Shown here: positions 11,629 through 38,498 of the stretch, one piece after another
Layout of the letters: every line of letters starts with the position of its first letter
Position numbering within the stretch: position 1 is the stretch's first letter
Source: Chryseobacterium gleum
Lineage (GTDB): Bacteria; Bacteroidota; Bacteroidia; Flavobacteriales_D; Crocinitomicaceae
Length of the DNA: 38,841 bases
NCBI GenBank assembly: GCA_943326315.2
Contig: CALPSU020000001.1
Span: 1-38,841, forward strand
Direction of reading: 5' to 3'
The notes under the pieces: model-generated
Database searches by the model: none
Told to the model about the DNA's origin: nothing
Seen by the model: only the letters and a program-made list of their open reading frames with translations
Made by a program: the position numbers and the translations under genes

Positions 11629-12348
11629 ATGAAACCTAACAAAATCTTATCTCTAATACTGACAATCTTTATATTCCATCTTTCTGCTCAAAAGAATACT
11701 GTAAACTCCTATGAAGAGAAATGGGTTGCTCTAAAACCAAGTAAAAATAACAAGGCTTTTTTTCCTTTATACAATAAGAAAAATCCAGAATTAGATTTGC
11801 TTCGAGTAATCAGTGATTTAACTTTAAAAGCTGAGTCAATTACCATTTATACGGAAGAATCTTTTATGTCAGATGAAAAATTTTGTTCGAAGCCTGAAAT
11901 GAAAGAAATTGAAGTAGATACAAATGAATTGAAAAAATCTAATGATTATTTAGAAATTCATTTCCCAAATATTATACCATTAGCAAATATATATGGATTA
12001 GATAGTACTGCTTTTATCGATGGAGCTGAATTAATTGTTTTCCCAAGAAGTGCTAAATTACAGATTCGTTTATCTGAAATCACTGAAATTAGAATTCACG
12101 AAGCACGGTTTTATGATAGCATTACAAAATCATACGATTTGAGAGCTGATGGAATTTGTTTTTACATTGAATCAGAACTAAATGGAGAAAGAGAGATTTT
12201 CTGGATTCGTTTAAATGATTTATATTTATATCTTCTCAATCCTATAAGATACCCTTGGTACAATGCGATAGTAAACAAAAAATACGAAGGAAATACATAC
12301 AAGTATCGTCTTGTTGGTAATAAAGAAATTAAGGAGATTAAAAAATAA
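11629..12348 (+). CDS. Hypothetical exported protein (possible distant GldN/PorN-like fold, unverified)
   Basis: 239 aa with an N-terminal signal-like segment (MKPNKILSLILTIFIFHLSAQ). The C-terminal ...RFYDS...DLRADGICFY...REIFWIRLNDLYLYL resembles by eye the FDk...RIiGi.P...lFWiyy.elR signature of GldN-family proteins. No search was possible. Confidence 0.5.
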   Translation: MKPNKILSLILTIFIFHLSAQKNTVNSYEEKWVALKPSKNNKAFFPLYNKKNPELDLLRVISDLTLKAESITIYTEESFMSDEKFCSKPEMKEIEVDTNELKKSNDYLEIHFPNIIPLANIYGLDSTAFIDGAELIVFPRSAKLQIRLSEITEIRIHEARFYDSITKSYDLRADGICFYIESELNGEREIFWIRLNDLYLYLLNPIRYPWYNAIVNKKYEGNTYKYRLVGNKEIKEIKK

Positions 12349-15543: not shown

Positions 15544-16006
15544 GTTTTATTTAAAAGTTTATTTCCAAAATAATTTTGGTATTCTAAGATTTTTTCTTGT
15601 TTTACTAATTCCTATGAAATATCAAGTATTCATAATTCAACGATTTACTTAGTTAAATCTTTATTAATAATACAAAGCTGTAAATTAAAATAAGCAATCC
15701 ATTAATCTATATTAAGATTAAATGAAAATGATTTTATTTATTTTGCACTCTTTTTATTATCGATTGAAAAACTCCTTAACAATCCAGATTCAACTTTATA
15801 TATTTTAGCATTTAAATCTCCTTTAAGCTGAATGATTGTACTTTTTTTAATTCAATTTTTTTCATTAGATTACTTTGAAAATTTTGACCTACTAAAGCAA
15901 ACTTTATTCTAAGTCTAATAATTAAAGAAATTAAAATAAATGTGGAGTATTGAATTAATTTTAGAATTGTACAAGATTTTATCTTGGGAGGAGGTTGAAA
16001 GAATTC

Positions 16007-16053
16007 AAAAAAAACATTACTGATTAATACTGAAATCAATATTAATCAGTAAT
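16007..16053 (-). terminator. Rho-independent terminator of the CDGSH gene
   Basis: A perfect 14-bp stem, ATTACTGATTAATA (16016-16029) paired with TATTAATCAGTAAT (16040-16053), has a 10-nt loop. The plus-strand A8 run (16007-14) gives a U-tract on the minus strand. It begins 11 nt after the stop codon. Confidence 0.75.
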
Positions 16054-16063
16054 ATAAAATTAG

Positions 16064-16303
16064 TTAAAGTTTATTGTGTGATCCATCGCAAAAACCAGGG
16101 TTAGCTGTGTGTTTGCAGTTGCATAAATAAGCTGTTTTAGTTTCTTCTGCTTCAAAAACTTTAGGAACAAATTCAGATCCCTTATGTGAACCATCGCAAA
16201 ATGGTTGATTGGCAGATTTTCCACATGAACACCAAGCATACGTTTTACCTGCTTCTAATTCAACAGCTATCGGTGTTTTTCCTGCAATAATTGGTTTTTC
16301 CAT
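16064..16303 (-). CDS. CDGSH iron-sulfur domain protein (two CDGSH motifs)
   Basis: Contains CSCGKSANQPFCDGSH and CNCKHTANPGFCDGSH. I place the start at the internal ATG at 16303 (MEKPIIAG...) because a -7 box lies inside the longer ORF that would start at 16342. Confidence 0.85.
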   Translation of the reverse strand: MEKPIIAGKTPIAVELEAGKTYAWCSCGKSANQPFCDGSHKGSEFVPKVFEAEETKTAYLCNCKHTANPGFCDGSHNKL

Positions 16304-16330
16304 CTTTTTATATTTTAACTTTTTAAAATC

Positions 16331-16338
16331 CAAATGTA
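16331..16338 (-). promoter_or_regulatory. -7 box TACATTTG for the CDGSH gene
   Basis: Exact TAnnTTTG match on the minus strand, 27 nt upstream of the ATG at 16303. Confidence 0.4.
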
Positions 16339-16433
16339 CCATATAAAAAAAGGTTTTGCGTTAATATATAAAGAAATGAAGTAATTATTTTTCTTTGATG
16401 AGCGCAATCATATTTTGAAATTATTAGGATCAA

Positions 16434-16441
16434 TATTTTTG
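16434..16441 (+). promoter_or_regulatory. -7 box TATTTTTG upstream of a 47-codon ORF and bamD
   Basis: Exact TAnnTTTG match, 14 nt upstream of the ATG at 16456. Confidence 0.3.
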
Positions 16442-16455
16442 AAAAAAAATTATAA

Positions 16456-16599
16456 ATGAAAAGTATTCAGATTCTAAAATTTACAAGTGAATATTCAGAT
16501 TCAAGGCTGAAAACTTTTTTAATAGGCGATTTATTGATTAAGGCATTTAAGACTTCAGGACAAGATTTTGTAAATGATTTGAAAAAAAGCACCTCTTAA
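16456..16599 (+). CDS. Possible small ORF (47 aa), function unknown
   Basis: Runs ATG to TAA and encodes MKSIQILKFTSEYSDSRLKTFLIGDLLIKAFKTSGQDFVNDLKKSTS. It falls below the ORF-track size cutoff and shows no recognisable family. Confidence 0.25.
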   Translation: MKSIQILKFTSEYSDSRLKTFLIGDLLIKAFKTSGQDFVNDLKKSTS

Positions 16600-16611
16600 C
16601 ACGATTTTATT

Positions 16612-16619
16612 TACCTTTG
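16612..16619 (+). promoter_or_regulatory. -7 box TACCTTTG, 6 nt upstream of the bamD ATG
   Basis: Exact TAnnTTTG match. The ATG at 16626 follows after 6 nt. Confidence 0.35.
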
Positions 16620-17774: not shown

Positions 17775-18971
17775 ATGCAAGGGAAACGCATTCTTCTAGG
17801 TATTACAGGAGGAATAGCAGCTTATAAAATTGCATCCTTAATAAGATTATTAATAAAATCAGGGGCAGAAGTCAAATGTATTTTGACTCCTGCCTCTTGT
17901 GATTTTATAAGTCCACTAACTGTAGCTACTTTATCTAAAAACCCTGTAGGCATAGAATTTTGGGATAAGAGCGATGGTTCTTGGACAAACCATGTAGAAT
18001 ATGGATTATGGGCAGATGTTTTTTTAATTGCTCCACTAACTGCCAATACACTTCATAAATTGGCGACTGGAGGTTGTGACAACTTACTTTTAGCGACATA
18101 TCTTTCAATGAAATGTCCTGTTATAGTTGCGCCAGCAATGGATTTAGATATGTATATTCACCCTTCGACTACACGAAATTTAGAGCTTCTACGTTTGGAT
18201 GGAGTTAAAATTATTCCTGCTGAATCTGGAGAATTAGCAAGTGGTTTGATTGGTCAAGGAAGAATGGCAGAACCTGAAAATTTATTTACTTTTTTAGAAT
18301 CGTTTTTCTCAAAATCTAATGTTTTTGCAGGAAAAAAGTTTTTAATAACAGCCGGCCCAACATACGAATCAATTGATCCAGTTCGTTTTATTGGGAATCA
18401 TTCCTCAGGTAAAATGGGGTACGCATTAGCTTCAAACATTCTTGAAAAAGGAGGGGAAGTACTTCTGATCTCAGGTCCAACAAAATTAGATATTAAACAT
18501 GAAAACCTTACCTTGATAAAGGTACAGTCTGCACAAAATATGTTAGATGCAGTTCAATTAAATTGGTCAAAATCAGATGTTGGAATCTTTTCAGCTGCGG
18601 TTGCGGATTACAGACCTTCAACAATTGCGAATCAGAAAATAAAAAAGGGTGAAGACAGTTTAACAATTGAATTGATTAAAAATCCAGATATTTTGGATTG
18701 GGCAGGATCTACTAAATCAGAGGATCAATGTCTTATTGGATTTGCATTAGAAACAAACGATGGTAAACAATACGCTGAAGATAAGTTGCGTCGAAAGAAT
18801 TTGAATTTCATTGTATTGAACTCATTAGAAGATCATGGCGCAGGGTTTGGTCACGATACAAATAAAATTTCAATTTTAGATAATCACAATAATTTCACTA
18901 GCTTTGAGTTAAAGACTAAAGTGGATGTTGCAGATGACATCGTTAAGTATTTTCAAACCTATTTGAAATGA
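17775..18971 (+). CDS. coaBC: Bifunctional phosphopantothenoylcysteine decarboxylase / phosphopantothenate-cysteine ligase
   Basis: 398 aa with an N-terminal flavoprotein domain (ILLGITGGIAAYK) and a C-terminal DFP ligase domain (FITAGPTYESIDPVRFIGNHSSGKMG). Confidence 0.93.
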   Translation: MQGKRILLGITGGIAAYKIASLIRLLIKSGAEVKCILTPASCDFISPLTVATLSKNPVGIEFWDKSDGSWTNHVEYGLWADVFLIAPLTANTLHKLATGGCDNLLLATYLSMKCPVIVAPAMDLDMYIHPSTTRNLELLRLDGVKIIPAESGELASGLIGQGRMAEPENLFTFLESFFSKSNVFAGKKFLITAGPTYESIDPVRFIGNHSSGKMGYALASNILEKGGEVLLISGPTKLDIKHENLTLIKVQSAQNMLDAVQLNWSKSDVGIFSAAVADYRPSTIANQKIKKGEDSLTIELIKNPDILDWAGSTKSEDQCLIGFALETNDGKQYAEDKLRRKNLNFIVLNSLEDHGAGFGHDTNKISILDNHNNFTSFELKTKVDVADDIVKYFQTYLK

Positions 18972-19888
18972 ATTTTTTAAAAATTATTTTTTGTTTATTT
19001 TTTGTTGGATTAAATGTCAACACTTCTTTTTCTCAAGAATTTAATTGTCAAGTATCTTATATTTTGGAAGCAAAAGTAGAAGCTTCAACAGCGGATAAAG
19101 CTTTATTAGAGCAATTAAAAACAGCAATGTATGAGTTTATGAATAACCAGCAATGGACAAATGATAAATTCAAAACAGAAGAAAGGATTAATTGTCAAAT
19201 ACAATTTCAAATAACAGCGATTCCTTCATTCGGACAATTTAATGGATCCATGCAAATTCAGTCTACAAGGCCAGCGTTGAATTCATCCTATAACACAACT
19301 TTATTTAATTTTGACGATACTGAAATACAAGTTAATTATACAGGAGGAACTGCATTAATATTACCTAAAAATGGATATAGAGATAACTTAAGTTCTTTAC
19401 TTGCGTTTTATGGATATTTTATTTTAGGAATGGATTATGATTCATTTTCACTAAAAGGCGGAACTCCATATTTTACACAGGCGCAACAAATTGTTTCAAA
19501 TGCGCAGCTTTCAGGGGGCGCTGGATGGCAATCAAATGAATCTGGGAAAGGAAAAAGAAATAGGTATTGGTTAGTTGATAATATCCTACATCAATTGTTT
19601 GAGCCTTTGAGAGAATGTAATTACGAATATCATAGAAAAGGAATAGATGTATTAAATGAAGATAAGGCAAAAGGAAGAAAAGCGATTTCAGCTGCTATAT
19701 TAAAATTAGATAAAATATCTTCAACTAGACCAAATTCAATCAATGTTTTGAATTTTTGTCAAGCAAAAGTTACCGAATTAAAGAATTTATATATCGATGC
19801 TGATCCAAAGGAAAAAACAGAAATTGTGAATCTTTTAAAGAAAATAGATCCGGCAAATTCATCTAAATACGAACAAATCTTAAATTAA
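18968..19888 (+). CDS. DUF4835-family exported protein
   Basis: 306 aa with a signal peptide and motifs WTNDKF..EERINC, RPALNSSYNT, LAFYGYFILGMDYDSF and NRYWL typical of the family found between coaBC and recN in Flavobacteriia. ATGA overlap with coaBC. Confidence 0.7.
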   Translation: MNFLKIIFCLFFVGLNVNTSFSQEFNCQVSYILEAKVEASTADKALLEQLKTAMYEFMNNQQWTNDKFKTEERINCQIQFQITAIPSFGQFNGSMQIQSTRPALNSSYNTTLFNFDDTEIQVNYTGGTALILPKNGYRDNLSSLLAFYGYFILGMDYDSFSLKGGTPYFTQAQQIVSNAQLSGGAGWQSNESGKGKRNRYWLVDNILHQLFEPLRECNYEYHRKGIDVLNEDKAKGRKAISAAILKLDKISSTRPNSINVLNFCQAKVTELKNLYIDADPKEKTEIVNLLKKIDPANSSKYEQILN

Positions 19889-27172: not shown

Positions 27173-27430
27173 ATGAGAAAAGATATACACCCAGAAGATT
27201 ACAGAATGGTAGTATTCAAAGATATGTCAAATGACTATTCTTTTATTTGTCCATCTTGCGCTACAACTAGCGAAACTATTAAATGGGAAGATGGTGTTGA
27301 ATATCCATTATTTAAATTGGATATCTCGCACAAATCTCACCCGTTCTTTACAGGTATTGTTCAATTTGTGGATACTGCAGGTCGTATTGATAAGTTTCAA
27401 AATCGTTACGCGAAAACAATCAAGAAATAA
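27173..27430 (+). CDS. rpmE2: 50S ribosomal protein L31, type B
   Basis: 85 aa with MRKDIHPEDY...VVFKD.S.D..F...ETIKWEDGVEYPLFKLDISHKSHPFFTG...GRIDKFQNRY, which matches the type-B (YtiA-like) pattern. Only one CxxC pair (CPSC) is retained. Confidence 0.9.
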   Translation: MRKDIHPEDYRMVVFKDMSNDYSFICPSCATTSETIKWEDGVEYPLFKLDISHKSHPFFTGIVQFVDTAGRIDKFQNRYAKTIKK

Positions 27431-27451
27431 TTTATTATTGAAAGATATAAA

Positions 27452-27478
27452 AGCCTCCTTATTGGGGGCTTTTTTTTT
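27452..27478 (+). terminator. Rho-independent terminator after rpmE2
   Basis: AGCCTCC-TTATT-GGGGGCT hairpin at 27452-27470 with one G-U pair, followed by a T9 run. Confidence 0.7.
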
Positions 27479-27511
27479 GAAAATATTTTCATTAATAAAA
27501 CTTGTGTTTTA

Positions 27512-27531
27512 AGTCTTGCAGTCTTGCAGTC
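27512..27531 (+). repeat. Tandem octamer AGTCTTGC x2.5
   Basis: AGTCTTGC occurs at 27512-19 and 27520-27, followed by a partial AGTC. The repeat lies between the rpmE2 terminator and the WG-repeat gene start. Confidence 0.8.
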
Positions 27532-27538
27532 TATTTCT

Positions 27539-27546
27539 TACCTTTG
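27539..27546 (+). promoter_or_regulatory. Possible -7 box TACCTTTG immediately before the GTG start of the WG-repeat gene
   Basis: Exact TAnnTTTG match, but only 3 nt before the GTG at 27550, so a role as promoter for that start is doubtful. Confidence 0.25.
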
Positions 27547-27549
27547 AAT

Positions 27550-29676
27550 GTGAAATCATATATTAAGATACTTTTTGCTTCAGTAGCAATATTCTTTTTC
27601 TCTCTTTCAATTAAAGCTAGCGGAATAGAAAAAGGATATATTGCATTAAAGGAATATAATTACTTTGAAGCAAAGAAAATTTTCACTAAATCTTTAAAAA
27701 AAGATTCTTCAGCTGCTGGATTTGGTTTAGCAACTATCTTTTTTAGAAATGATAATCCTTTTCACGCTTTAGATTCGGCTTATAAATACATTTGTATTTC
27801 TGAACGAAATTTTATTTTTGTTGGAGATCCAGAAAAAATAAAACTTCGACAATATGGTTTTGATTATTTGAATATCATTAACCTACGTCAGAAGATTAGT
27901 TTACAGTATTACGAATTTGCTTTAAAAGAAAATACTGTTTTAGGATTTGAGAACTTTATTCAAAAAAATGATTGGTCAAATGAACGTTTTCAGGCAATTT
28001 ATAAAAGGGATTCGTTAGCATTTGAAAGTGCCGTAAAAATTAATACGTCTATTGAATTACGATCTTTCATGGCTAAATATCCTTCGAGCGAATTTATCAG
28101 GGATGCTCAAAAAGTTTTAGAATTGTGTCAATATAAAGAAGTGACAGCAAGTGGAACAATGGATTCATATATTTCATTTTGTAAAGATTATTCTAGAAAT
28201 CGATATGTAAAAGACGCAGAAGATAAAATATATGAATTGTCAATTATTAATAAAAAGTTGGATGAATATTATCTATTTATTGAAAACTTTCCATTCAATA
28301 GGAATGTAGAGGTTGCTTGGAGAAATGTGTACAAACTTTTTTTAGTTGATTATTCAGATGATAGAATATTGAGTTTTCAAAATTCGTACCCTAATTATCC
28401 ATTCCAGTCTGAATTACAACAAGATATAAAATTTTCTAAACGTTTACTTGTACCTTTTAAAGAAGGGTTATTGTATGGTTTTATGGATTATGAAGGTGCA
28501 CCAATTATTCAACCTGAATATGATTATGTAGGTTTTTTTAGTGAAGGAGTTGCTGTTGTAATGAAAAATGGTAAATATGGATTTATTGATAAAGGAAATA
28601 ATTTAATTATTGATCTTTTATATGATTCAGCAATTGATTTCGAAGGTGGACGTGCAATTGTAGGATTAAAAGATAAATTCGGAATAATAAATAGAGTTGG
28701 TCATATCATATTACCAATTGATTTTGAGGATTTAGGAACCTTTTCAGAAGGCTTAATTTATGGGAAAAAGGATAGTCTTTTTGGTTATTATGATAATTCT
28801 GGTTTTCAGCGTTTAGAAGAAAAGTATTCAGAGGCTTTTTCCTTCTCAAATGGAATTGCAAAAGTTCAATTAGGAAGAAAACAAGCTTTTATTGATACTT
28901 ATGGAGCATTAATAGTATCACCAGTTTTTGAATCGATACATTTTTTTAATGATTCTTTACTTGTATTTGAGAAAGAAGGTCGTTTTGGCATTTGTCGAAA
29001 AAATGGAACTTTAATAGATTCGATTAAATACGATATGATAGGTCTATTGTCTACAGATAGGGCTATCGTTACAAACAAAGGAAAGTTAGGGTATATAAAC
29101 GGCGAGGGTAAATTAATAATTGATATGAAATTTGATGAATTTCCAAATTTCATTGAAGTAGGTCAGTATAAAGGCGCTTATGCTGTAATTAGAATAAAAG
29201 GTAAATATGGTGTTATTGATCATCTTGGGAAAATAATTATTCCAGCAACTTATCTTCATTTAGGGAAGTTTAGCTCTCTAATAGCATTTACAAAAGGGAA
29301 AGGTTGGGGATTTTTAGATCTACTTAATAATCCTGTCATTTCAGCACAATTTGATTTTGCAGAAAGCTTTAACGACGGCTTTGCTGTTGTAGAGAAAGAT
29401 ACATTATTAGGTTTAATAAATCCTCAGGGCATAGTTACACTTCCGATTACTTTTAATGAGATTAATAGGATTGATAAAAATAGGGTTATGGTTGGTTTAA
29501 AATATCTTCATGGTATTTATTCTGTAACTGGCGAAGTAATAGTACCTATTGAATATCAGCAAATTCGAATAATAGATAAAGATTTTTTAATTTTAACGAA
29601 GCAAGATGAGGTTCATTATTTGTATCTTCCGCAAAATAAAATTATTAAGCCAAATCCAAAAGTAGGGGATGAATAA
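27550..29676 (+). CDS. Exported WG-repeat (KWG) protein with N-terminal helical-repeat region
   Basis: The signal-like N-terminus appears only if translation starts at GTG 27550 (VKSYIKILFASVAIFFFSLSIKASG); the track uses TTG at 27502. The N-half has about five copies of x-F-x-x-x-YP-x-S/N-x-F/Y...A units. The C-half has about a dozen repeats such as GKYGFID..G..ii...YD....F.eG.A.V. Confidence 0.75.
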   Translation: MKSYIKILFASVAIFFFSLSIKASGIEKGYIALKEYNYFEAKKIFTKSLKKDSSAAGFGLATIFFRNDNPFHALDSAYKYICISERNFIFVGDPEKIKLRQYGFDYLNIINLRQKISLQYYEFALKENTVLGFENFIQKNDWSNERFQAIYKRDSLAFESAVKINTSIELRSFMAKYPSSEFIRDAQKVLELCQYKEVTASGTMDSYISFCKDYSRNRYVKDAEDKIYELSIINKKLDEYYLFIENFPFNRNVEVAWRNVYKLFLVDYSDDRILSFQNSYPNYPFQSELQQDIKFSKRLLVPFKEGLLYGFMDYEGAPIIQPEYDYVGFFSEGVAVVMKNGKYGFIDKGNNLIIDLLYDSAIDFEGGRAIVGLKDKFGIINRVGHIILPIDFEDLGTFSEGLIYGKKDSLFGYYDNSGFQRLEEKYSEAFSFSNGIAKVQLGRKQAFIDTYGALIVSPVFESIHFFNDSLLVFEKEGRFGICRKNGTLIDSIKYDMIGLLSTDRAIVTNKGKLGYINGEGKLIIDMKFDEFPNFIEVGQYKGAYAVIRIKGKYGVIDHLGKIIIPATYLHLGKFSSLIAFTKGKGWGFLDLLNNPVISAQFDFAESFNDGFAVVEKDTLLGLINPQGIVTLPITFNEINRIDKNRVMVGLKYLHGIYSVTGEVIVPIEYQQIRIIDKDFLILTKQDEVHYLYLPQNKIIKPNPKVGDE

Positions 29677-30445
29677 TTTTTTCAATTTTATTGATAAATA
29701 TAAATTCGGTATTATAGCTGCATTTGCAACTTATATTGGGATATTTATGTATTTGCAATTGACTTCTATTCCTGAATATTTTGAGATTAAACCTTTTACT
29801 GAAGGAGCTAGACTTGAAAAGCCAAAAGAAGAAGTAGCTTTAAAACCTGAAAACATAGAAGTTCCACCACAATTTGAAGCTGGAAAAGTGACAAATACAG
29901 CTCGGGATATGAATGACAATCGTTCTCGCTCTGAGGAGGATTGGACAGCTACAAAATCCACTTCAGAAGATGTTGAAAAAATGGTTCGCGAAGAAGAAAG
30001 AAAAATGTTTGAAGAAACTGGAGGAGCCGCAAAAAGGAAAGCGATTCAACAAATGGATGAAGAACGAAAAAAGAACGAAAAAAATAAATCAAATACTCCT
30101 GTTAAATCAACTAATTCACAAACAGGAAGTAATAATGCTGTAAAAGGAAATGTAATGGTTGAATGGTCTTTACAGAATAGGATGCCTCATCAAAATAATG
30201 AATGGAACGTTCGGAATCCTGGTTACACTTGTGGTCATGGATCTACAGGTAGAGTTGTTATAGTAATAAAAGTTGGACAAGATGGAAGAGTTGTTAGTGC
30301 TTCTGCTGAAGCTAGCGGAAGTTCGACCGCTAATTCTTGTATGATTGAACAGGCACTTAAATATGCTAAACTTTCTCGCTTCGATTATTCTCCAACCGAA
30401 GTAAATCAAAGCGGTAAGATATATTACACTTTTATATCTCAATAA
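29669..30445 (+). CDS. Membrane-anchored protein with charged linker and TonB C-terminal-like domain
   Basis: 258 aa with an N-terminal TM segment (FGIIAAFATYIGIFMYLQL) and a Lys/Glu-rich linker. The C-terminal ...GRVVIVIKVGQDGRVVSASAE...CMIEQALKYAKLSRFDY...GKIYYTF resembles TonB_C. There is an 8-nt overlap with the WG-repeat gene. Confidence 0.55.
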   Translation: MNNFFNFIDKYKFGIIAAFATYIGIFMYLQLTSIPEYFEIKPFTEGARLEKPKEEVALKPENIEVPPQFEAGKVTNTARDMNDNRSRSEEDWTATKSTSEDVEKMVREEERKMFEETGGAAKRKAIQQMDEERKKNEKNKSNTPVKSTNSQTGSNNAVKGNVMVEWSLQNRMPHQNNEWNVRNPGYTCGHGSTGRVVIVIKVGQDGRVVSASAEASGSSTANSCMIEQALKYAKLSRFDYSPTEVNQSGKIYYTFISQ

Positions 30446-30458
30446 TGAATTTTTCACT

Positions 30459-30764
30459 ATGTCGGAATTAGATAAAATTAAAATTATAATATTTAAAGCG
30501 ATTGATGAATTTAATTTATCTCAAGAATTTGAGAATAAATTAGATAAAATGGAGGAAGAAATTCTTTTTTCAAGAGCTGGATTTACAGGAAATGGGAAAT
30601 TAGACAGTTTGACGTTGGTTTATTTTTTGGTTACAATTGAAGAGTATTTACAAAAGGAAATAGATTTAAATTATAATCTTCAAATTCAAAATTTGATTGA
30701 TAATAAAGAGAAAGAATTAAAGAATATTTCTTCTTTAATGAATTATGTAAAAAACTCACTATAA
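30459..30764 (+). CDS. Standalone acyl/peptidyl carrier protein
   Basis: 101 aa with the phosphopantetheine attachment motif GKLDSLTLVYFLVTIEE (Ser50, codon 30606-30608). Starts 13 nt after the upstream gene and ends 7 nt before the FkbH-like gene. Confidence 0.75.
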   Translation: MSELDKIKIIIFKAIDEFNLSQEFENKLDKMEEEILFSRAGFTGNGKLDSLTLVYFLVTIEEYLQKEIDLNYNLQIQNLIDNKEKELKNISSLMNYVKNSL

Positions 30765-30771
30765 GATAACT

Positions 30772-32445
30772 ATGAAAATTCTTTTGATCTCTGATTTTTC
30801 AATAAATAATCTTTCTGGGTATTTAAAAAATGATTTATTAGATCAGAAATTACAGACTATAATCGCACCCTTTAACCAGGTTCATCAAACTTTAATTTCG
30901 GATTCAAACGATTGTTGGATTGACAAACCAGATTATGCTTTTGTATGGACACAGCCAGAAAGAATCTTAAATACTTTTCAGACGTTTCTTAATAATGAAA
31001 AGTTTGAAATGGATAAACTTATTCAAGAAATTCAAGATTTTTCAAATTTATTAATTTTGGCAAGTCAAAGGGTTTCGTCTTTGTTTGTTGCCAATTGGAC
31101 AGTTGATTTAAGTCTAAATTATCGTGGAATAGTAAATACAAAATCAGGAATTGGTGTAGTTGAAGTGTTGTCTAAAATGAATTCAACCCTTGAGCGATCT
31201 TTATCTACAATTCCGAATATATTTATACTTAATAGTCAGAAATGGATATCTAATTCAGGTAATATAGCGTATAGTCCAAAACTATGGTATTTAAGTAAAA
31301 CACCTTTTCATACATCTGTATTTTCAAGCGCTTCCAAAGATATTTCATCTTGTATTAAAAGTGAAAAAGGAGGCTCTAGAAAATTAATTATTACGGATTT
31401 GGATAATACACTTTGGGGAGGTGTTGTTGGAGATGTTGGTTATGAAAATCTAATTTTAGGTGGACATAATCCAATCGGAGAAGCTTATAAAGACTTTCAA
31501 TTAGCTTTGAAATCTATATCAAATTTAGGCGTTGTTTTAGCTATTACAAGTAAAAATGAAGAATCAGTTGCTTTAAAAGCTATTGAGGACCATCCAGAAA
31601 TGGTTTTGAGGAAGGATAGTTTTGTTTCTTGGAGAATAAATTGGGATGATAAGGCAAAAAATATTTTTGAAATTTCTCAAGAGTTAAATTTAGGATTGGA
31701 TTCAATAGTTTTTTTAGACGATAATCCTTTTGAAAGGGAAAGGGTAAAACATTCTTTGCCTGAAGTATTTGTTCCCGAATTACCAAAAGATCCAATGTTA
31801 TATAGGCAATTTTTATTGCAATTGGATTGTTTTAACTCCAATGCAATAAGTGAGGAAGATTTAAAACGGACAGAATTATACGCTTTGGAAAAGCAAAGGA
31901 ATGTGCATAAAAATGGCTTTAATGATTTGGAAGAATGGTTGAAATCGATTGATATAAAAGTGAAATGTGAAAAAATTAATGATGAAAATTTTCAACGTGC
32001 TTTACAATTATTGAATAAGACAAATCAAATGAATTTGATGACTGCTCGATATTCTGAAAAAGAGTTGTTGGATAAAAGTTTTGAAGAGAATAGTTTTACA
32101 TATACTTTTTCGGTAAAAGATAATTTTGGAGATGCTGGTTTAACTGGAGTAATCGGTTTAAAAAAGGTGCAAAATGTATTATTTTTTACTGATTTCGTAT
32201 TGAGTTGTAGGGTAATAGGAAGAAAAATAGAGGAAACTATGCTTTCTGTGGCATTTCGTATTGCAAAAGAAAATGGCTGTTCCAAATTGATAGCGAATTA
32301 CAGTAGAACAGATAAAAATAAACCTTGTCATGATTTTTTTAAATCTTCAGGATTTGAGCAAAAGGATGAAATTTTTGTTTGGGATCTCAAAACAAGCTAT
32401 GTAAGACCTTATTACATTGATTTAGAAATGAATGATTTTATTTGA
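30772..32445 (+). CDS. FkbH-like HAD-IIIC phosphatase / acyl-ACP loader
   Basis: 557 aa. HAD motifs are ITDLDNTLWGG (D209/D211), ITSKN, WDDKAKN and FLDDNPFE. FkbH C-domain motifs are NKTNQMNLMTARYS, DNFGDAGLTG and LSCRVIGR (Cys479). Confidence 0.85.
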   Translation: MKILLISDFSINNLSGYLKNDLLDQKLQTIIAPFNQVHQTLISDSNDCWIDKPDYAFVWTQPERILNTFQTFLNNEKFEMDKLIQEIQDFSNLLILASQRVSSLFVANWTVDLSLNYRGIVNTKSGIGVVEVLSKMNSTLERSLSTIPNIFILNSQKWISNSGNIAYSPKLWYLSKTPFHTSVFSSASKDISSCIKSEKGGSRKLIITDLDNTLWGGVVGDVGYENLILGGHNPIGEAYKDFQLALKSISNLGVVLAITSKNEESVALKAIEDHPEMVLRKDSFVSWRINWDDKAKNIFEISQELNLGLDSIVFLDDNPFERERVKHSLPEVFVPELPKDPMLYRQFLLQLDCFNSNAISEEDLKRTELYALEKQRNVHKNGFNDLEEWLKSIDIKVKCEKINDENFQRALQLLNKTNQMNLMTARYSEKELLDKSFEENSFTYTFSVKDNFGDAGLTGVIGLKKVQNVLFFTDFVLSCRVIGRKIEETMLSVAFRIAKENGCSKLIANYSRTDKNKPCHDFFKSSGFEQKDEIFVWDLKTSYVRPYYIDLEMNDFI

Positions 32446-32456
32446 TTAATAAACAT

Positions 32457-32861
32457 TTATTTTTCTTCTTCAACGATTTCAATTATTTCAAAAGTAGGAG
32501 AAGATAAAAAGATAACTCGTCTGTTATTAAAAGCAATAGCAGGTTGCGGTTTACTTAAAGCAATAAATTTATTAGAAAGACACCTTTTTATGTCTTCGTC
32601 AAAATTATTAGCAACAAAACACATATGGTATAGCCCACCTTTTTTCTTTTGTAATATTTGATTGACAGGGCTTTCTTCATTTAATGGTTCAATTAATTCT
32701 AATCGTACTCCATTAGAACTAGTTGCAAAGGCAATTTTGCAATTTTGAATTGGATCTATAATAATCTCACTTAATTCAGGTATTCCAAGGATTGGACTTA
32801 ACATAGAAGAAAAATAATCTTCAATATTTTTGACTGCAATACCAACGTGATCGAATTCCAT
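32457..32861 (-). CDS. VOC-family protein, methylmalonyl-CoA epimerase-like
   Basis: 134 aa with MEFDHVGIAV..., ...RLELIEP..., ...GGLYHMCF... and ...EIIEIVE. These match the His/Glu metal-ligand spacing of glyoxalase-fold epimerases. Confidence 0.7.
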   Translation of the reverse strand: MEFDHVGIAVKNIEDYFSSMLSPILGIPELSEIIIDPIQNCKIAFATSSNGVRLELIEPLNEESPVNQILQKKKGGLYHMCFVANNFDEDIKRCLSNKFIALSKPQPAIAFNNRRVIFLSSPTFEIIEIVEEEK

Positions 32862-32931
32862 TTTTATTTATTATTAATTCATGCTTTGCTTTTCTAGATC
32901 TAAAATACGATTAAAATATGAAGTATTAGAT

Positions 32932-32950
32932 TTCCTGTTTAAAACAGGAA
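32932..32950. promoter_or_regulatory. 19-bp palindrome TTCCTGTTT-A-AAACAGGAA in the divergent intergenic region
   Basis: Perfect 9-bp arms around a single central base. It lies between the VOC start (32861, minus strand) and the methyltransferase start (32998, plus strand). Confidence 0.4.
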
Positions 32951-32997
32951 GATTCTTTTTATCTTCGTGCCTAATCATAATTTAAAATAGTATTACT

Positions 32998-33762
32998 TTG
33001 ATTTTAGCTATTGACATAATTCAAATAATTACAACAGTTATATTTGCTGCACTACTTTTTTTGGGGTTTAAATTTTTTGAATCAACTTGGTCTTATACTA
33101 TCAGTAAGCCTAATAAATGGGAAAGTAGTTTACTGACTGGAGATATCTCTAAAAAATTAAAAAAGCTTGAAAGAACTTATAAGGATCGCGTTCGATTTTA
33201 TAATTTTTGGTTTCAAATTGAACGTTTAAAACGAGATAATGTTGAAGGTGCATTTGTAGAATTAGGAGTTTATCAAGGGGAAACAGCTGAAATTATACAT
33301 GAAATGGATTTGACTAGAGGTTTTCATTTATTCGATACTTTTGAAGGTTTTGATGACAAAGATTTACTTTTAGAGAAAAATAAAGACGATCGATACACAA
33401 CAAATAATTTTTCAGATACGCAATTAAATAAAGTAAAAGAAATCTTTAAAGGTAGTTCAAATGTGTTTTTTTATAAAGGTTATTTCCCAGATACTACTGT
33501 AGATTTGAAAGAAAAAAAAATTGCATTTGTGAATATCGATGCAGACTTATATAAACCTACTATCTCTGCCCTGGAATATTTTTACCCCAAGTTATCTCCA
33601 GGTGGTGTTATTATTGTTCACGATTATAATCACAATTGGGATGGGGCAAAACAAGCGTTAGATGAATTTATTATAACTATTCCTGAATGTTTGATTGAAA
33701 TACCTGATTGGCAAGGTAGTGCCATGATAATAAAAAATCAAACACCAACTATTAAAAATTAA
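32998..33762 (+). CDS. TylF/MycF/NovP-type O-methyltransferase with N-terminal hydrophobic segment (TTG start)
   Basis: 254 aa with ELGVYQGETA (SAM glycine-rich loop), FDTFEGF and VNIDADLYKPT...IIVHDY metal/SAM motifs of the macrocin-O-methyltransferase family. The first ~30 aa (ILAIDIIQIITTVIFAALLFLGFKFF) are hydrophobic. Confidence 0.75.
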   Translation: MILAIDIIQIITTVIFAALLFLGFKFFESTWSYTISKPNKWESSLLTGDISKKLKKLERTYKDRVRFYNFWFQIERLKRDNVEGAFVELGVYQGETAEIIHEMDLTRGFHLFDTFEGFDDKDLLLEKNKDDRYTTNNFSDTQLNKVKEIFKGSSNVFFYKGYFPDTTVDLKEKKIAFVNIDADLYKPTISALEYFYPKLSPGGVIIVHDYNHNWDGAKQALDEFIITIPECLIEIPDWQGSAMIIKNQTPTIKN

Positions 33763-33769
33763 ATATCAA

Positions 33770-34570
33770 GTGTACATTCCATATCAAAAAATAGCGGAAA
33801 ATTTAGGATTAAAAGAAGACGATACTCTTTTGATTGCATCTGATATTTCGAAATTGGCGTATAATACGTTCAAAAACAAAGAAAAATTAAACAGTAATTT
33901 ACTTGTTGATAGTTTTAAGAAAGTTTTAAAAGATGGGACATTACTTTTTCCTGCCTTTATAGATGATTTTAAAGATGGTGATGTTTTTGATAAATTGAAA
34001 AATGCTCCTGAAATGGGAGCTTTGTCTAAATTAACATTTGAACGAGTAGATTTTATTCGTAGTTCAGATCCACTTCATTCATTTATGCTTTTCGGAAGAG
34101 ATGCAGATGATTTGTCAGAAATAGTAAGTGATTCAACTTTTGGAAGTAAATCTATTTTTGCTTATTTAAAAAATAAAAAAGCTAAAATGTTACTGATTGA
34201 CGTTGATTTAGAACATAGTTTCACTTTTGCACATTATGTTGAAGAAGATCAAAAGGTATCGTATAGGAAGTATTTGGATCTGAAATATAAATCAGTGAAT
34301 GAAAGTGGAAGATTGGAAGATAAAGTTTTAAAAGTTTATACAAAAAAAGCAGGAATTGTAAATACGTTAAATTCTTTAGAATCCTTACTTATTGAAAAAG
34401 GAGCAATGGGTAAAATTGAAATAAATGAAAGCATATTTAGATTAATTCATCTCGATACAGCCTTTGATGTAATTCAGGATGATATTCAAAATAATAAAGC
34501 TCAAAATCTGTATCGTTTTGAATTTAATAATTTTATAAAAACATCTTTGAAATCAGTTCTGAAAAGATGA
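33770..34570 (+). CDS. AAC(3)-fold (aminoglycoside N3-acetyltransferase family) acyltransferase, GTG start
   Basis: 266 aa. The N-terminal pattern ...LGLKEDDTLLIASDISKL...VDSFKKVLKDGTLLFPAF... matches by eye the G....l.vHsS...lG......l.....GTL.mP.f signature of the family. Confidence 0.6.
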   Translation: MYIPYQKIAENLGLKEDDTLLIASDISKLAYNTFKNKEKLNSNLLVDSFKKVLKDGTLLFPAFIDDFKDGDVFDKLKNAPEMGALSKLTFERVDFIRSSDPLHSFMLFGRDADDLSEIVSDSTFGSKSIFAYLKNKKAKMLLIDVDLEHSFTFAHYVEEDQKVSYRKYLDLKYKSVNESGRLEDKVLKVYTKKAGIVNTLNSLESLLIEKGAMGKIEINESIFRLIHLDTAFDVIQDDIQNNKAQNLYRFEFNNFIKTSLKSVLKR

Positions 34571-35487
34571 AAAGCGATATTAAATATGTTTCTTATACTG
34601 AAATTGATTTCATAAAATGGGATGCTTGTATTGAAAATTCTTTAAACGGAATTGTTTTTGCATATTCCTGGTATTTAAAGTCTGTAAGTGATGAATGGGA
34701 CGCTTTAATTTTGAATGATTATGATGCTGTATTTCCCATTACAAGAAAATCTAAGTTTGGATTAAATTATTTTTATAATCCGATATTCGCTCTTCAATTA
34801 GGTGTCTTTTCAAAGGTTACTTTATCTAATGATCTTATTAATAGATTTATTAATTGTATTCCTTCCAAAATAAAATTGATTGATATTAATTTAAATTTTG
34901 GAAATAAATTAATTGACTCTTCTTTTGATATTTCGGATAAGTCATGCCAATTTATTGATTTGAAAGATAATTACGAGATTATTTTTCAAAAATATTCTAC
35001 AAATCTTAAAAGAAATTTAACCAAAGCAAAGAAGAATAATTTAGAAATAGTCTTATCTCTTAATACTGAAAATGTAGTAAAACTTTTTAAAGAAAATAGG
35101 GGAGAAACATTGAAGGAAATAACAGAGGATCATTATTTTAGACTTAATACATTACTTGCAGAAATGCAAAAAAGAAAAATAGGTAAAATTTACGAATGTT
35201 GGCTAGGTAAAGAATTAATTGCTTCAGCGTTCTTTTCTATAACAAATAATAGAATTATTTATATCAAGGGAGGTACTACTCAGAAAGGCCGAGATTTAGG
35301 TGCGATGCATTTTATTATGGATGAGGTAATACATTTGAATTCAAAAAGTAATTTAATATTCGATTTTGGCGGTTCTTCTATTCCTCAGGTGGTTAGATTT
35401 AATCACACTTTTGGAGCAAATGATTATGTGTACCAAAGATTGTATAGAAATAGATTGCCATTTTTTTTAAAACTATTAAAAAAGTAA
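34567..35487 (+). CDS. FemAB-like / BioF2-like GNAT acyltransferase
   Basis: 306 aa, with size and layout of the two-lobed FemAB-like GNATs common in Flavobacteriia (...W...I.NS.NG.VFAYSWYL..V...WDAL...). ATGA overlap with the upstream gene. Assigned by resemblance only. Confidence 0.5.
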   Translation: MKSDIKYVSYTEIDFIKWDACIENSLNGIVFAYSWYLKSVSDEWDALILNDYDAVFPITRKSKFGLNYFYNPIFALQLGVFSKVTLSNDLINRFINCIPSKIKLIDINLNFGNKLIDSSFDISDKSCQFIDLKDNYEIIFQKYSTNLKRNLTKAKKNNLEIVLSLNTENVVKLFKENRGETLKEITEDHYFRLNTLLAEMQKRKIGKIYECWLGKELIASAFFSITNNRIIYIKGGTTQKGRDLGAMHFIMDEVIHLNSKSNLIFDFGGSSIPQVVRFNHTFGANDYVYQRLYRNRLPFFLKLLKK

Positions 35488-37676: not shown

Positions 37677-38498
37677 ATGGCAAAACATAATTGGACAACA
37701 ATTAAAGAATATACAGATATCAAATTTGATTTTTTAGACGGAATTGCTCGTATTATGATCAATAGACCTCGTGTTTACAATGCATTTCGACCTGAAACAA
37801 ATATGGATATGTTAGATGCAATGAACATTTGTAGAGAACGAAACGATATTGGTGTTATCATTTTGACAGGTGCAGGTGATAAAGCATTCTGTTCGGGCGG
37901 TGATCAAAATGTAAAAGGTATTGGTGGTTATATTTCTGAAAATGGAGTGCCACGTTTAAATGTTTTGGATTTACACAAAGCAATTCGTTCGATGCCAAAA
38001 CCTGTAATTGCAATGGTGAATGGTTATGCAATTGGTGGTGGACATGTATTGCACGTAGTATGTGATTTAACGATTGCTTCTGATAATGCAATTTTCGGTC
38101 AAACAGGTCCAAAAGTTGGAAGTTTTGATGGAGGTTTTGGATCTTCTTACTTAGCTAGATGTGTTGGTCAGAAAAAAGCGCGCGAGATATGGTTTACATG
38201 TAATCAGTACAGTGCAGAAGAAGCTGAAAAAATGGGAATGGTAAATAAAGTTGTTCCTTTTAATCAATTGGAAGACACGACCATCGATTGGTGCAGAACA
38301 ATTATGCAAAGAAGTCCTCTAGCCATCAGGATGATTAAGAGAGGTTTAAATGCCGAATTAGACGGTCAACATGGAATCATGGAATTAGCAGGAGATGCTA
38401 CTTTGATGTATTATTTAACTGAAGAAGCGCAAGAAGGAAAACATGCATTTTTAGAGAAAAGACAACCAGATTTTCAAAAATTTCCGAAATTCCCTTGA
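37677..38498 (+). CDS. menB: 1,4-dihydroxy-2-naphthoyl-CoA synthase
   Basis: 273-aa crotonase fold with [28 protein letters not shown] and a C-terminal ...[14 protein letters not shown]. Confidence 0.92.

Follow-up and report, generated by a model that had tools for sequence, protein, structure and literature searches.

A predicted glyceryl-loading gene cassette lacking polyketide synthases as a candidate carrier-protein-dependent N-acylation module in Flavobacteriales

What does an FkbH-family loader do in a genomic region that encodes no assembly line to receive its product? This question is raised by a cassette of six genes on contig CALPSU020000001.1 (assembly GCA_943326315.2, filed under Chryseobacterium gleum). 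Our data on the source genome consist of a stretch of 38,841 nucleotides (38.8 kb) of this 53 kb contig, hereafter the window. Loading of glyceryl units onto an acyl carrier protein (ACP) by FkbH enzymes serves polyketide pathways, such as those for methoxymalonyl-ACP, tetronates, and oxazolomycin (OzmB). In the window, a carrier protein and an FkbH-family loader are instead accompanied by a VOC-fold metalloenzyme, a TylF-family methyltransferase, and two predicted transferases with AAC(3) and FemX folds, respectively. On balance, and with moderate confidence, we read the cassette as a carrier-protein-dependent tailoring module that would place a glyceroyl or O-methylglyceroyl group, instead of acetyl, on an amine of an activated amino sugar that would end up in a glycan of the cell surface. 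The six genes are as follows:

30459-30764, + strand: stand-alone ACP-like carrier protein, 101 amino acids, putative phosphopantetheine site Ser50 in an LDSL motif
30772-32445, + strand: FkbH-family loader, 557 amino acids, with FkbH_N, HAD-IIIC phosphatase, and C-terminal acyl-Cys domains
32457-32861, - strand: VOC-fold metalloenzyme resembling methylmalonyl-CoA epimerase and glyoxalase I, 134 amino acids, Glyoxalase_4 match
32998-33762, + strand: TylF-family O-methyltransferase dependent on S-adenosylmethionine, with an N-terminal membrane anchor, 254 amino acids, PF05711
33770-34570, + strand: predicted AAC(3)-fold N-acyltransferase, 266 amino acids, PF02522 and AlphaFold model
34567-35487, + strand: FemX-fold (FemAB/VimA-like) transferase, 306 amino acids, AlphaFold model and fold search

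A listing of open reading frames (ORFs) returned all six genes at the positions that an earlier note on this DNA had given, and the domain assignments made in that note were borne out by profile searches, motifs, and predicted folds. The genes are closely packed, with 7 nt between the carrier and FkbH genes, 11 nt between FkbH and the antisense VOC gene, a divergent gap of 136 nt between VOC and TylF, 7 nt between TylF and the AAC(3)-fold gene, and a 4 nt overlap between the latter and the FemX-like gene. All six are conserved in synteny at 62-82% protein identity in related metagenomic genomes of freshwater Flavobacteriales, and they are therefore real genes rather than chance ORFs. The source contig, numbered L001 among the loci compared here, shows the identical locus.

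The carrier protein had no Pfam match in the profile search, PP-binding included, and matched TIGR00517 weakly (E=0.008, 16 bits against a cutoff of 70). Its assignment is carried by a DSL-type serine at the start of helix II: Ser50 aligned to Ser36 of Escherichia coli AcpP and to the corresponding residue of the carriers adjoining FkbH in 16 other loci, one of which, the counterpart in L026, passes the Pfam PP-binding threshold. The alignment also revealed two insertions that are absent from E. coli AcpP. The loader scored well above the cutoffs for TIGR01686 (282 bits, cutoff 146.65) and HAD-IIIC (61 bits, cutoff 35.75), and it matched FkbH_N at 27.5 bits. Both the HAD motif I (DxDxT) and the acyl-carrying C-terminal cysteine (C479) are present, and the residues D209-L-D211-x-T213, S260-K-N262, K294, D316, K416-T-N-Q-x-N-L422, and S478-C479-R480 were invariant in 13 diverse homologues from several phyla. 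Residues 2-361 are matched by the solved structure of B. fragilis BF1531 (PDB 3SLR). The FkbH protein is predicted to make a glyceryl-S-carrier protein on the dedicated carrier encoded immediately upstream. FkbH homologues at 45-50% identity are very widespread, and those that we sampled lay in glycan clusters (L005 and L092); L005 has ACP-FkbH among glycosyltransferases.

The VOC protein matched Glyoxalase_4 at 61 bits and the methylmalonyl-CoA epimerase equivalog TIGR03081 at 56.3 bits, which is below the cutoff of 114.95 for that function. Among solved structures, glyoxalase I and human methylmalonyl-CoA epimerase are nearest to it, and H5, E55, H79, and E128 are kept. Of the 12 loci in the AAC3 survey (described below) that contain FkbH, 9 also have a VOC gene, as does L092; the VOC protein of the window is predicted to be a C2 epimerase or isomerase of the glyceryl thioester. 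The TylF protein scored 89.7 bits against PF05711 (threshold 23), with the sugar O-methyltransferases 5I10/4CDZ, MycF, and NovP as closest solved relatives. Its hydrophobic N-terminus is kept in the orthologues of L012, L014, and L094. The gene is missing from the otherwise syntenic cassettes of the close relatives L010 and L011, so the TylF step appears to be optional. In L011, VOC and the AAC(3)-fold gene are separated by four genes.

PDB sequence searches with the two transferases yielded nothing useful, and fold searches on predicted models were used instead. The AAC(3)-fold protein matched Antibiotic_NAT (PF02522) at 82.5 bits (threshold 25). Its AlphaFold model (pLDDT, the predicted local distance difference test, 95) had template modeling scores (TM) of 0.74-0.78 to BA2930, YokD, FrbF, and AAC(3)-III, and its invariant His155 aligned to the catalytic His183 of BA2930. 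Identity to the proteins of this group is 14-19%, and the window protein differs from them in its predicted donor, an acyl carrier protein in place of acetyl-CoA, and in its predicted acceptor, a biosynthetic amino sugar in place of an antibiotic. Aminoglycoside resistance was considered as a function and rejected, given a score of 27.3 bits against the resistance equivalog NF033082 (AAC_3; cutoff 270) and the biosynthetic neighborhoods of the family. The last protein of the cassette scored 21.4 bits against Acetyltransf_6, just below the cutoff of 22. Its AlphaFold model (pLDDT 94) found FemX, the tRNA-dependent peptide synthases Sbb17/Sba18, and the C-domain of MprF as best fold matches. Two of its relatives (L006 and L065) weakly match TIGR03019, and the cluster names of its distant relatives are all "hypothetical protein". 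Judged from the model, we predict that it acts as an aminoacyl transferase on a sugar amine.

The first explanation to be weighed is that the cassette is a detached fragment of a polyketide synthase (PKS) or non-ribosomal peptide synthetase (NRPS) pathway, supplying a methoxymalonyl- or hydroxymalonyl-ACP extender or a tetronate. To our knowledge, the biochemically characterized FkbH enzymes all feed assembly lines, and this is what speaks for such an origin. The cassette further resembles the polyketide systems in its TIGR01686-family loader with the catalytic motifs, acyl-Cys included, and in a dedicated carrier encoded alongside. However, a Pfam scan of every window ORF of at least 100 amino acids found no ketosynthase (KS), acyltransferase, condensation, or adenylation domain, and no glycosyltransferase, flippase, or exporter, as the earlier note had claimed. 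The FkbK/FkbI-type dehydrogenases of the polyketide pathways are likewise absent from the window, and the partners of the loader are a VOC protein and an AAC(3)-fold transferase. No KS, other megasynthase, or NRPS adjoined the cassette in 91 related loci that were screened. One contig, listed twice (L008/L036), has a lone FabF-like KS about 6 kb away beside biotin genes, which is unrelated. The cassette is moreover vertically conserved in a housekeeping slot. We consider the assembly-line origin effectively refuted and assign it hardly any probability.

If not to an assembly line, where would the glyceryl unit go? Indications come from the neighborhoods of the AAC3-like family to which the AAC(3)-fold protein belongs. 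In a survey anchored on this family (80 loci from named genomes, with neighborhood counts made on 77 AAC3-like loci), a carrier gene was present within 6 kb in 42/77 loci and a carrier together with a loader in 29/77, and a deacetylase-like partner was found in 47/77. FkbH-carrier-AAC3 adjacency occurs in Bacteroidota (L004, L019, L027, L065, and the clade of the window) and elsewhere in Bacillales (L007, L026), Lachnospiraceae (L063, L068, L077, L082), Treponema (L086), and L093. These data argue for the core of the earlier proposal, namely that FkbH loads a glyceryl unit, that the AAC(3)-fold enzyme transfers it to an amine, and that the FemAB-like protein works on the same acceptor. On gene content and order, we regard the idea of a PKS-free, carrier-dependent N-acylation as well backed by comparative genomics.

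Three contexts can be told apart. In Firmicutes, Treponema, and Omnitrophota, AAC3 stands with a DUF2172/DUF4910 protein (the Cj1295 family); pseudaminic-acid (Pse) genes are often nearby, as are genes for FkbH, carrier, VOC, and methyltransferases. The order in Lysinibacillus antri (L026) is PseB-C-F-G-NeuB, AAC3, DUF2172, methyltransferase, FkbH, PP-binding carrier, VOC, methyltransferase, and FliD, and the loci of Metabacillus (L007) and L093 resemble it. In Bacteroidales and others, the frame is DUF7033, (alpha/alpha)6, DltA-like AMP-ligase, an 85-amino-acid carrier, a small GNAT, AAC3, DUF7033, and FemX-like; it is complete in 11 loci, and AAC3, DUF7033, and FemX-like occur together in 21. 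The third context is that of Bacteroidota with FkbH. It is represented by L065, in which the order is (alpha/alpha)6, carrier, FkbH, VOC, AAC3, DUF7033, and FemX-like, so that carrier-FkbH-VOC replaces ligase-carrier-GNAT in the frame of the second context. L004 also belongs here, with a WecB-type epimerase, DUF7033, carrier, FkbH, AAC3, a deacetylase-like protein, and FemX-like. The epimerase adjoining the cassette in L004 and L020 is of the WecB type (UDP-HexNAc class). Across the relatives, gene content suggests a common logic in which an amine would be deacetylated, by a DUF2172 or VimE-like enzyme, and then re-acylated by AAC3.

The eight-gene Bacteroidales cassette was observed at 5047-13100 of L039, where a MacB-type permease follows it, and also in L023, L029, L032, L034, L038, L040, L042, L044, L056, L067, and L071. 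It looks like an undescribed system for the double re-acylation of an amino sugar.

In a neighbor-joining tree, the FkbH-linked AAC3 proteins of Bacteroidota formed one clade. Other Bacteroidota with a cassette were nearer to this clade, and the solitary AAC3 proteins from the order of the window lay further off; the Bacteroidota branch was separate from the Pse-linked AAC3 proteins. The reading of a sugar N-acylation module is supported by the domains, motifs, and folds of the six proteins, by FkbH-carrier-AAC3 adjacency across phyla, by the exchange of loaders, and by the clade of FkbH-linked AAC3. The parallel between L026 and C. jejuni, the VimE homology of the DUF7033 partners, the WecB-type epimerases, and the lack of adjoining ketosynthases also speak for it.

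The earlier note could not match the cassette to a described system; two related systems can be named. The first is the flagellin-sugar locus of Campylobacter jejuni. The flagellin of strain NCTC 11168 carries 5-N-(2,3-di-O-methylglyceroyl)-pseudaminic acid, for which Cj1295 is required (PMC3068675). In the same locus, cj1302 encodes an FkbH domain and cj1301 an "epimerase" (PMC7099621), Cj1299 is acpP2 (PMC6109747), and Cj1296/7 is an N-acetyltransferase (PMC3068675, PMC7099621, PMC6109747). The likeness of the window to Cj1295-Cj1302 extends to FkbH, epimerase, ACP, and N-acetyltransferase, to the absence of a PKS, and, for the predicted product, to an N-glyceroyl-type amide on an amino sugar. 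Cj1296/7 we take to belong to the AAC(3) family, partly by analogy with the Firmicutes loci, and the locus presumably also encodes a methyltransferase. Of these genes, only Cj1295 has been tied genetically to the di-O-methylglyceroyl sugar. We found no proposal or test of an FkbH-carrier-transferase route in the C. jejuni literature, and a scan with [FM]TF[ATV]H[YF]VEE, a single pattern taken from the AAC3 alignment, gave no Campylobacter contig among its matches; the comparison with C. jejuni draws on published work and on Firmicutes analogues. A counterpart of the C. jejuni set, in which the transferase is AAC(3)-like and two methyltransferases are TylF-like, lies beside Pse genes in Lysinibacillus, Metabacillus, and Lachnospiraceae (L026, L007, L063). 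Co-located FkbH, carrier, VOC, O-methyltransferase, and AAC(3)-like transferase are all five present in both the window and L026. In contrast to C. jejuni and the flagellin islands, the window has no Cj1295-type DUF2172/DUF4910 gene and no Pse or legionaminic-acid (Leg) genes, and it has one methyltransferase rather than two, plus a FemX-fold transferase that the islands lack.

The second system is the Wbp/Vim pathway of Porphyromonas gingivalis and Tannerella forsythia, in which a linking sugar, a 2-N-seryl/glycyl-3-N-acetyl-hexuronic acid or its amide, anchors type IX secretion cargo (PMC7468200). VimE is a UDP-2,3-diacetamido-glucuronate 2-N-deacetylase, and VimA, reported to match the FemAB PEP-CTERM family TIGR03019, adds Ser or Gly to the freed amine (PMC7468200). 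The FemAB-like part of the cassette points to this pathway: the 306-residue window protein has a FemX fold, and its family pairs across Bacteroidota with full-length VimE-family deacetylases (in 25/80 loci of the survey), which recalls the removal of an acetyl group and subsequent re-acylation of a sugar amine in the Wbp/Vim pathway. The window differs from this pathway in having no VimE-like or Wbp genes; an AAC(3)-fold enzyme, a carrier protein, and FkbH, in turn, are all missing from the pathway as published. We regard the cassette as a Bacteroidota variant of the module already present in flagellin-sugar loci, combined with a VimA-like enzyme.

With these parallels the following route can be proposed. 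FkbH would take a C3 unit from 1,3-bisphosphoglycerate, dephosphorylate it, and tether it as glyceryl-S on the phosphopantetheine of Ser50, as expected from what is known of the family. The VOC protein might exchange the proton at C2 of this 2-hydroxy-thioester by way of an enediolate and so, in effect, epimerize it; enediolate chemistry is common to glyoxalase I and methylmalonyl-CoA epimerase. The membrane-anchored TylF enzyme could then, as an optional step, O-methylate a hydroxyl of the glyceryl unit or of the sugar. Going by the gene neighborhoods, the AAC(3)-fold enzyme is predicted to take the acyl group from the carrier protein and would pass it to a sugar amine. Like VimA, the FemX-fold enzyme may attach an aminoacyl residue to this sugar, at a second amine.

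The nature of the acceptor is the weakest link in this proposal. A UDP-linked sugar of the 2,3-diamino-uronic-acid type, as in the Wbp/Vim pathway, is the leading, though doubtful, candidate, and it would give a variant of the type IX cargo anchor. GldN-like and DUF4835 proteins are encoded at 11629-12348 and 18968-19888 of the window, which hints that the organism has a gliding/type IX secretion apparatus and is relevant to the linking-sugar idea. Alternatively, the same chemistry could act on a nonulosonic acid, pseudaminic or legionaminic, with the Pse or Leg genes elsewhere in the genome, as in C. jejuni flagellin and in Pse5Am7Gra of T. forsythia. The AAC3 relatives of Firmicutes, Treponema, and L093 do lie beside Pse genes and DUF2172, and in L092 ACP-FkbH-VOC is found inside a NeuC/CMP-synthetase cluster. 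T. forsythia, itself a member of Bacteroidota, carries N-glyceroyl-Pse; the gene for its N-glyceroyl group "remains elusive" (PMC6120980), and the genetic basis "remains a major challenge" (PMC5378307). Against this, no DUF2172 or Pse gene was present in any Bacteroidota AAC3 locus surveyed, where VimE-family and FemX-like genes are found instead, the Bacteroidota AAC3 proteins branch apart from the Pse-linked ones, and the window has no nonulosonic-acid genes. We favor the diamino-uronic acceptor over a nonulosonic acid, which we judge to be unlikely.

The FkbH protein of the L092 locus (1-21689) is 49% identical to that of the window, and NCBI names its protein cluster as Candidatus Omnitrophica. 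There, ACP-FkbH-VOC is part of a gene cluster of legionaminic type that also encodes a NeuC-type epimerase, a CMP-synthetase, a CBS-NTP-transferase, a LIC12162-family transferase, a B12-radical SAM enzyme, and a 355-amino-acid protein lacking annotation; it has no AAC(3)-like gene. Another transferase may take the glyceryl unit in this case.

Is the AAC(3)-fold gene a functional partner of the loader, or was it simply there before? Upstream of the cassette lie two genes and a putative terminator:

27449-27473, + strand: terminator-like hairpin 3' of rpmE2, 10-bp stem with 5 GC pairs followed by a T-run
27502-29676, + strand: WG-repeat protein, Pfam WG_beta_rep at 185 bits
29669-30445, + strand: TonB-C-like membrane protein, weak tonB_Cterm match

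The frame rpmE2-WG-TonB-like-[variable]-menB (window 27173-30445 and 37677-38498) is conserved in many freshwater and marine Flavobacteriales (L094-L173). We also surveyed metagenomes with the TonB-like protein as anchor; of the 63 informative loci, 53 had WG and the TonB-like gene together. The genes found 3' of the TonB-like gene were distributed as follows:

Solitary AAC3, with or without menB: about 28/63 loci
menB directly: 7/63 loci
FkbH present: 2/63 loci
None of the queried genes: 26/63 loci

By this comparison, the position is an "AAC3 slot" that the FkbH module elaborates only rarely. With solitary AAC3 so frequent, the AAC(3) fold can evidently work without a carrier or loader. In L122 and L126 the TonB-like gene is followed by FemX-like and then AAC3, an order opposite to that of the window and without the FkbH module, so the AAC3/FemX-like pair exists alone in the slot. 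The metagenome-assembled contigs L014, L015, and L062 ("Chryseobacterium gleum"), L052 ("Candidatus Kuenenia stuttgartiensis"), and L013 ("Chitinophagaceae") share a window-like rpmE2-WG-TonB-like synteny or near-identical cassette genes, and their names look taxonomically wrong. The earlier note had considered it damaging to its idea if orthologous cassettes were consistently embedded in PKS/NRPS or O-antigen clusters. Here the answer is mixed: distant homologues do occur in sugar clusters, and the orthologues of this lineage were always in the housekeeping slot.

The slot data bear on a further alternative, in which the genes are neighbors partly by chance. On this view, the AAC(3)-fold protein would be an ordinary slot-resident N-acetyltransferase using acetyl-CoA, and the inserted ACP-FkbH-VOC(-TylF) genes would feed another product, such as a lipid or O-glyceroyl modification, with the enzyme for it encoded outside the cassette. 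Besides the solitary AAC3 genes, this explanation can draw on L002, which keeps ACP-FkbH-VOC with no AAC3 nearby, on L005 and L092, which have ACP-FkbH and no AAC3, and on the CoA donors of solved structures (see below). It fits poorly with FkbH-AAC3 adjacency that is independent in at least four phylum-level lineages, and with the tree, in which FkbH-linked AAC3 proteins group with one another and not with the solitary AAC3 proteins that occupy the slot within the same order. The difference between L065 and L039, two loci with an otherwise identical frame, would also be hard to explain without a hand-off from carrier to AAC3. We give coincidence the same low probability as a nonulosonic-acid acceptor.

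The acceptor might also be something other than a sugar, such as a lipid head group, peptidoglycan or another peptide, or the WG/TonB-like protein, the WG protein having been among the acceptors offered in the earlier note. An 8 nt overlap joins the WG and TonB-like genes, and 13 nt separate the TonB-like gene from the carrier gene. With such gaps of at most 13 nt or overlaps and a terminator found only upstream, WG, TonB-like, ACP, and FkbH are probably co-transcribed, and the hairpin 3' of rpmE2 is likely to be the upstream boundary of their transcription unit. Moreover, peptidoglycan precursors and lipids are among the substrates of FemX-fold enzymes (FemX, MprF), and there are no sugar genes in the window. 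However, about half of the loci have the WG/TonB-like pair and neither AAC3 nor FkbH, and the informative neighbors of homologous cassettes are sugar-nucleotide enzymes, VimE-family deacetylases, or glycosyltransferases and flippases. WG and TonB-like were considered as parts of the system and rejected: the pair is stable over the 63 loci, AAC3 follows it in only about 30 and FkbH in 2, and the two genes are thus neighbors rather than obligate components. On the same grounds the WG protein finds no support as an acceptor, and a non-sugar acceptor of any kind appears to us more improbable than either of the two preceding alternatives.

Returning to the sugar N-acylation reading, several observations weigh against it. 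Among the solved AAC(3)-fold enzymes that the fold search retrieved, every one with a bound donor contains CoA or acetyl-CoA, and the carrier-protein donor proposed for the AAC3-like subfamily is deduced entirely from neighborhoods. Most relatives have a solitary AAC3 in the slot, with neither carrier nor loader, and the close relative L002 keeps ACP-FkbH-VOC and has no AAC3 or FemX-like gene within 8 kb. The profile scans found no deacetylase, sugar-nucleotide gene, glycosyltransferase, or flippase in the window. The FemX-like protein of the window had no direct match to any FemAB/VimA model in the profile search. The DUF7033 partners, though full-length VimE homologues, reached 106-171 bits where the VimE equivalog requires 440, and are therefore paralogues or distant orthologues of VimE. 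Finally, the tree that separates the AAC3 groups is a quick distance tree without support values.

The remainder of the window consists of housekeeping genes by Pfam, including the nuo operon, BamD, rpoZ, coaBC, recN, mdh, rpmE2, an M13 peptidase, and menB. Just one stretch of any size has no long ORF (15544-16616); it encodes a 92-amino-acid protein with two CDGSH iron-sulfur motifs (16064-16342, - strand). Rfam and tRNA scans of the whole window returned no RNA genes. A sigma-70 promoter scan, with a model not made for Bacteroidota promoters, gave fewer sites in the real sequence than in shuffled sequence. The cassette has a GC content of 26-30% and the flanks one of 27-34%, values so close that composition is uninformative on horizontal acquisition, either way.

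Tentatively, and with less confidence than we place in the reading of the window itself, we suggest that this AAC(3)-fold subfamily is a widespread class of sugar N-acyltransferases that depend on carrier proteins and whose loaders can be exchanged, with FkbH supplying glyceryl and DltA-like ligases supplying other acids. Such enzymes might stand behind N-glyceroyl and di-O-methylglyceroyl nonulosonic acids and, together with VimE/VimA-like partners, might produce new variants of the type IX tether sugar, the window being an O-methylglyceroyl amide variant. The window is one of many instances, and the evidence is wholly comparative. The neighborhood pattern nevertheless provides a concrete candidate enzyme set for N-glyceroyl chemistry, consisting of FkbH, a carrier protein, a VOC protein, and an AAC(3)-fold transferase. 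If the proposal is true, FkbH chemistry would extend past assembly lines and the AAC(3) fold would gain a new type of donor. In Bacteroidota, the link to VimE/VimA-like genes suggests an unexplored variety in the sugars that anchor type IX cargo, a diversity whose possibility was explicitly raised by Veith and colleagues (PMC11969387).

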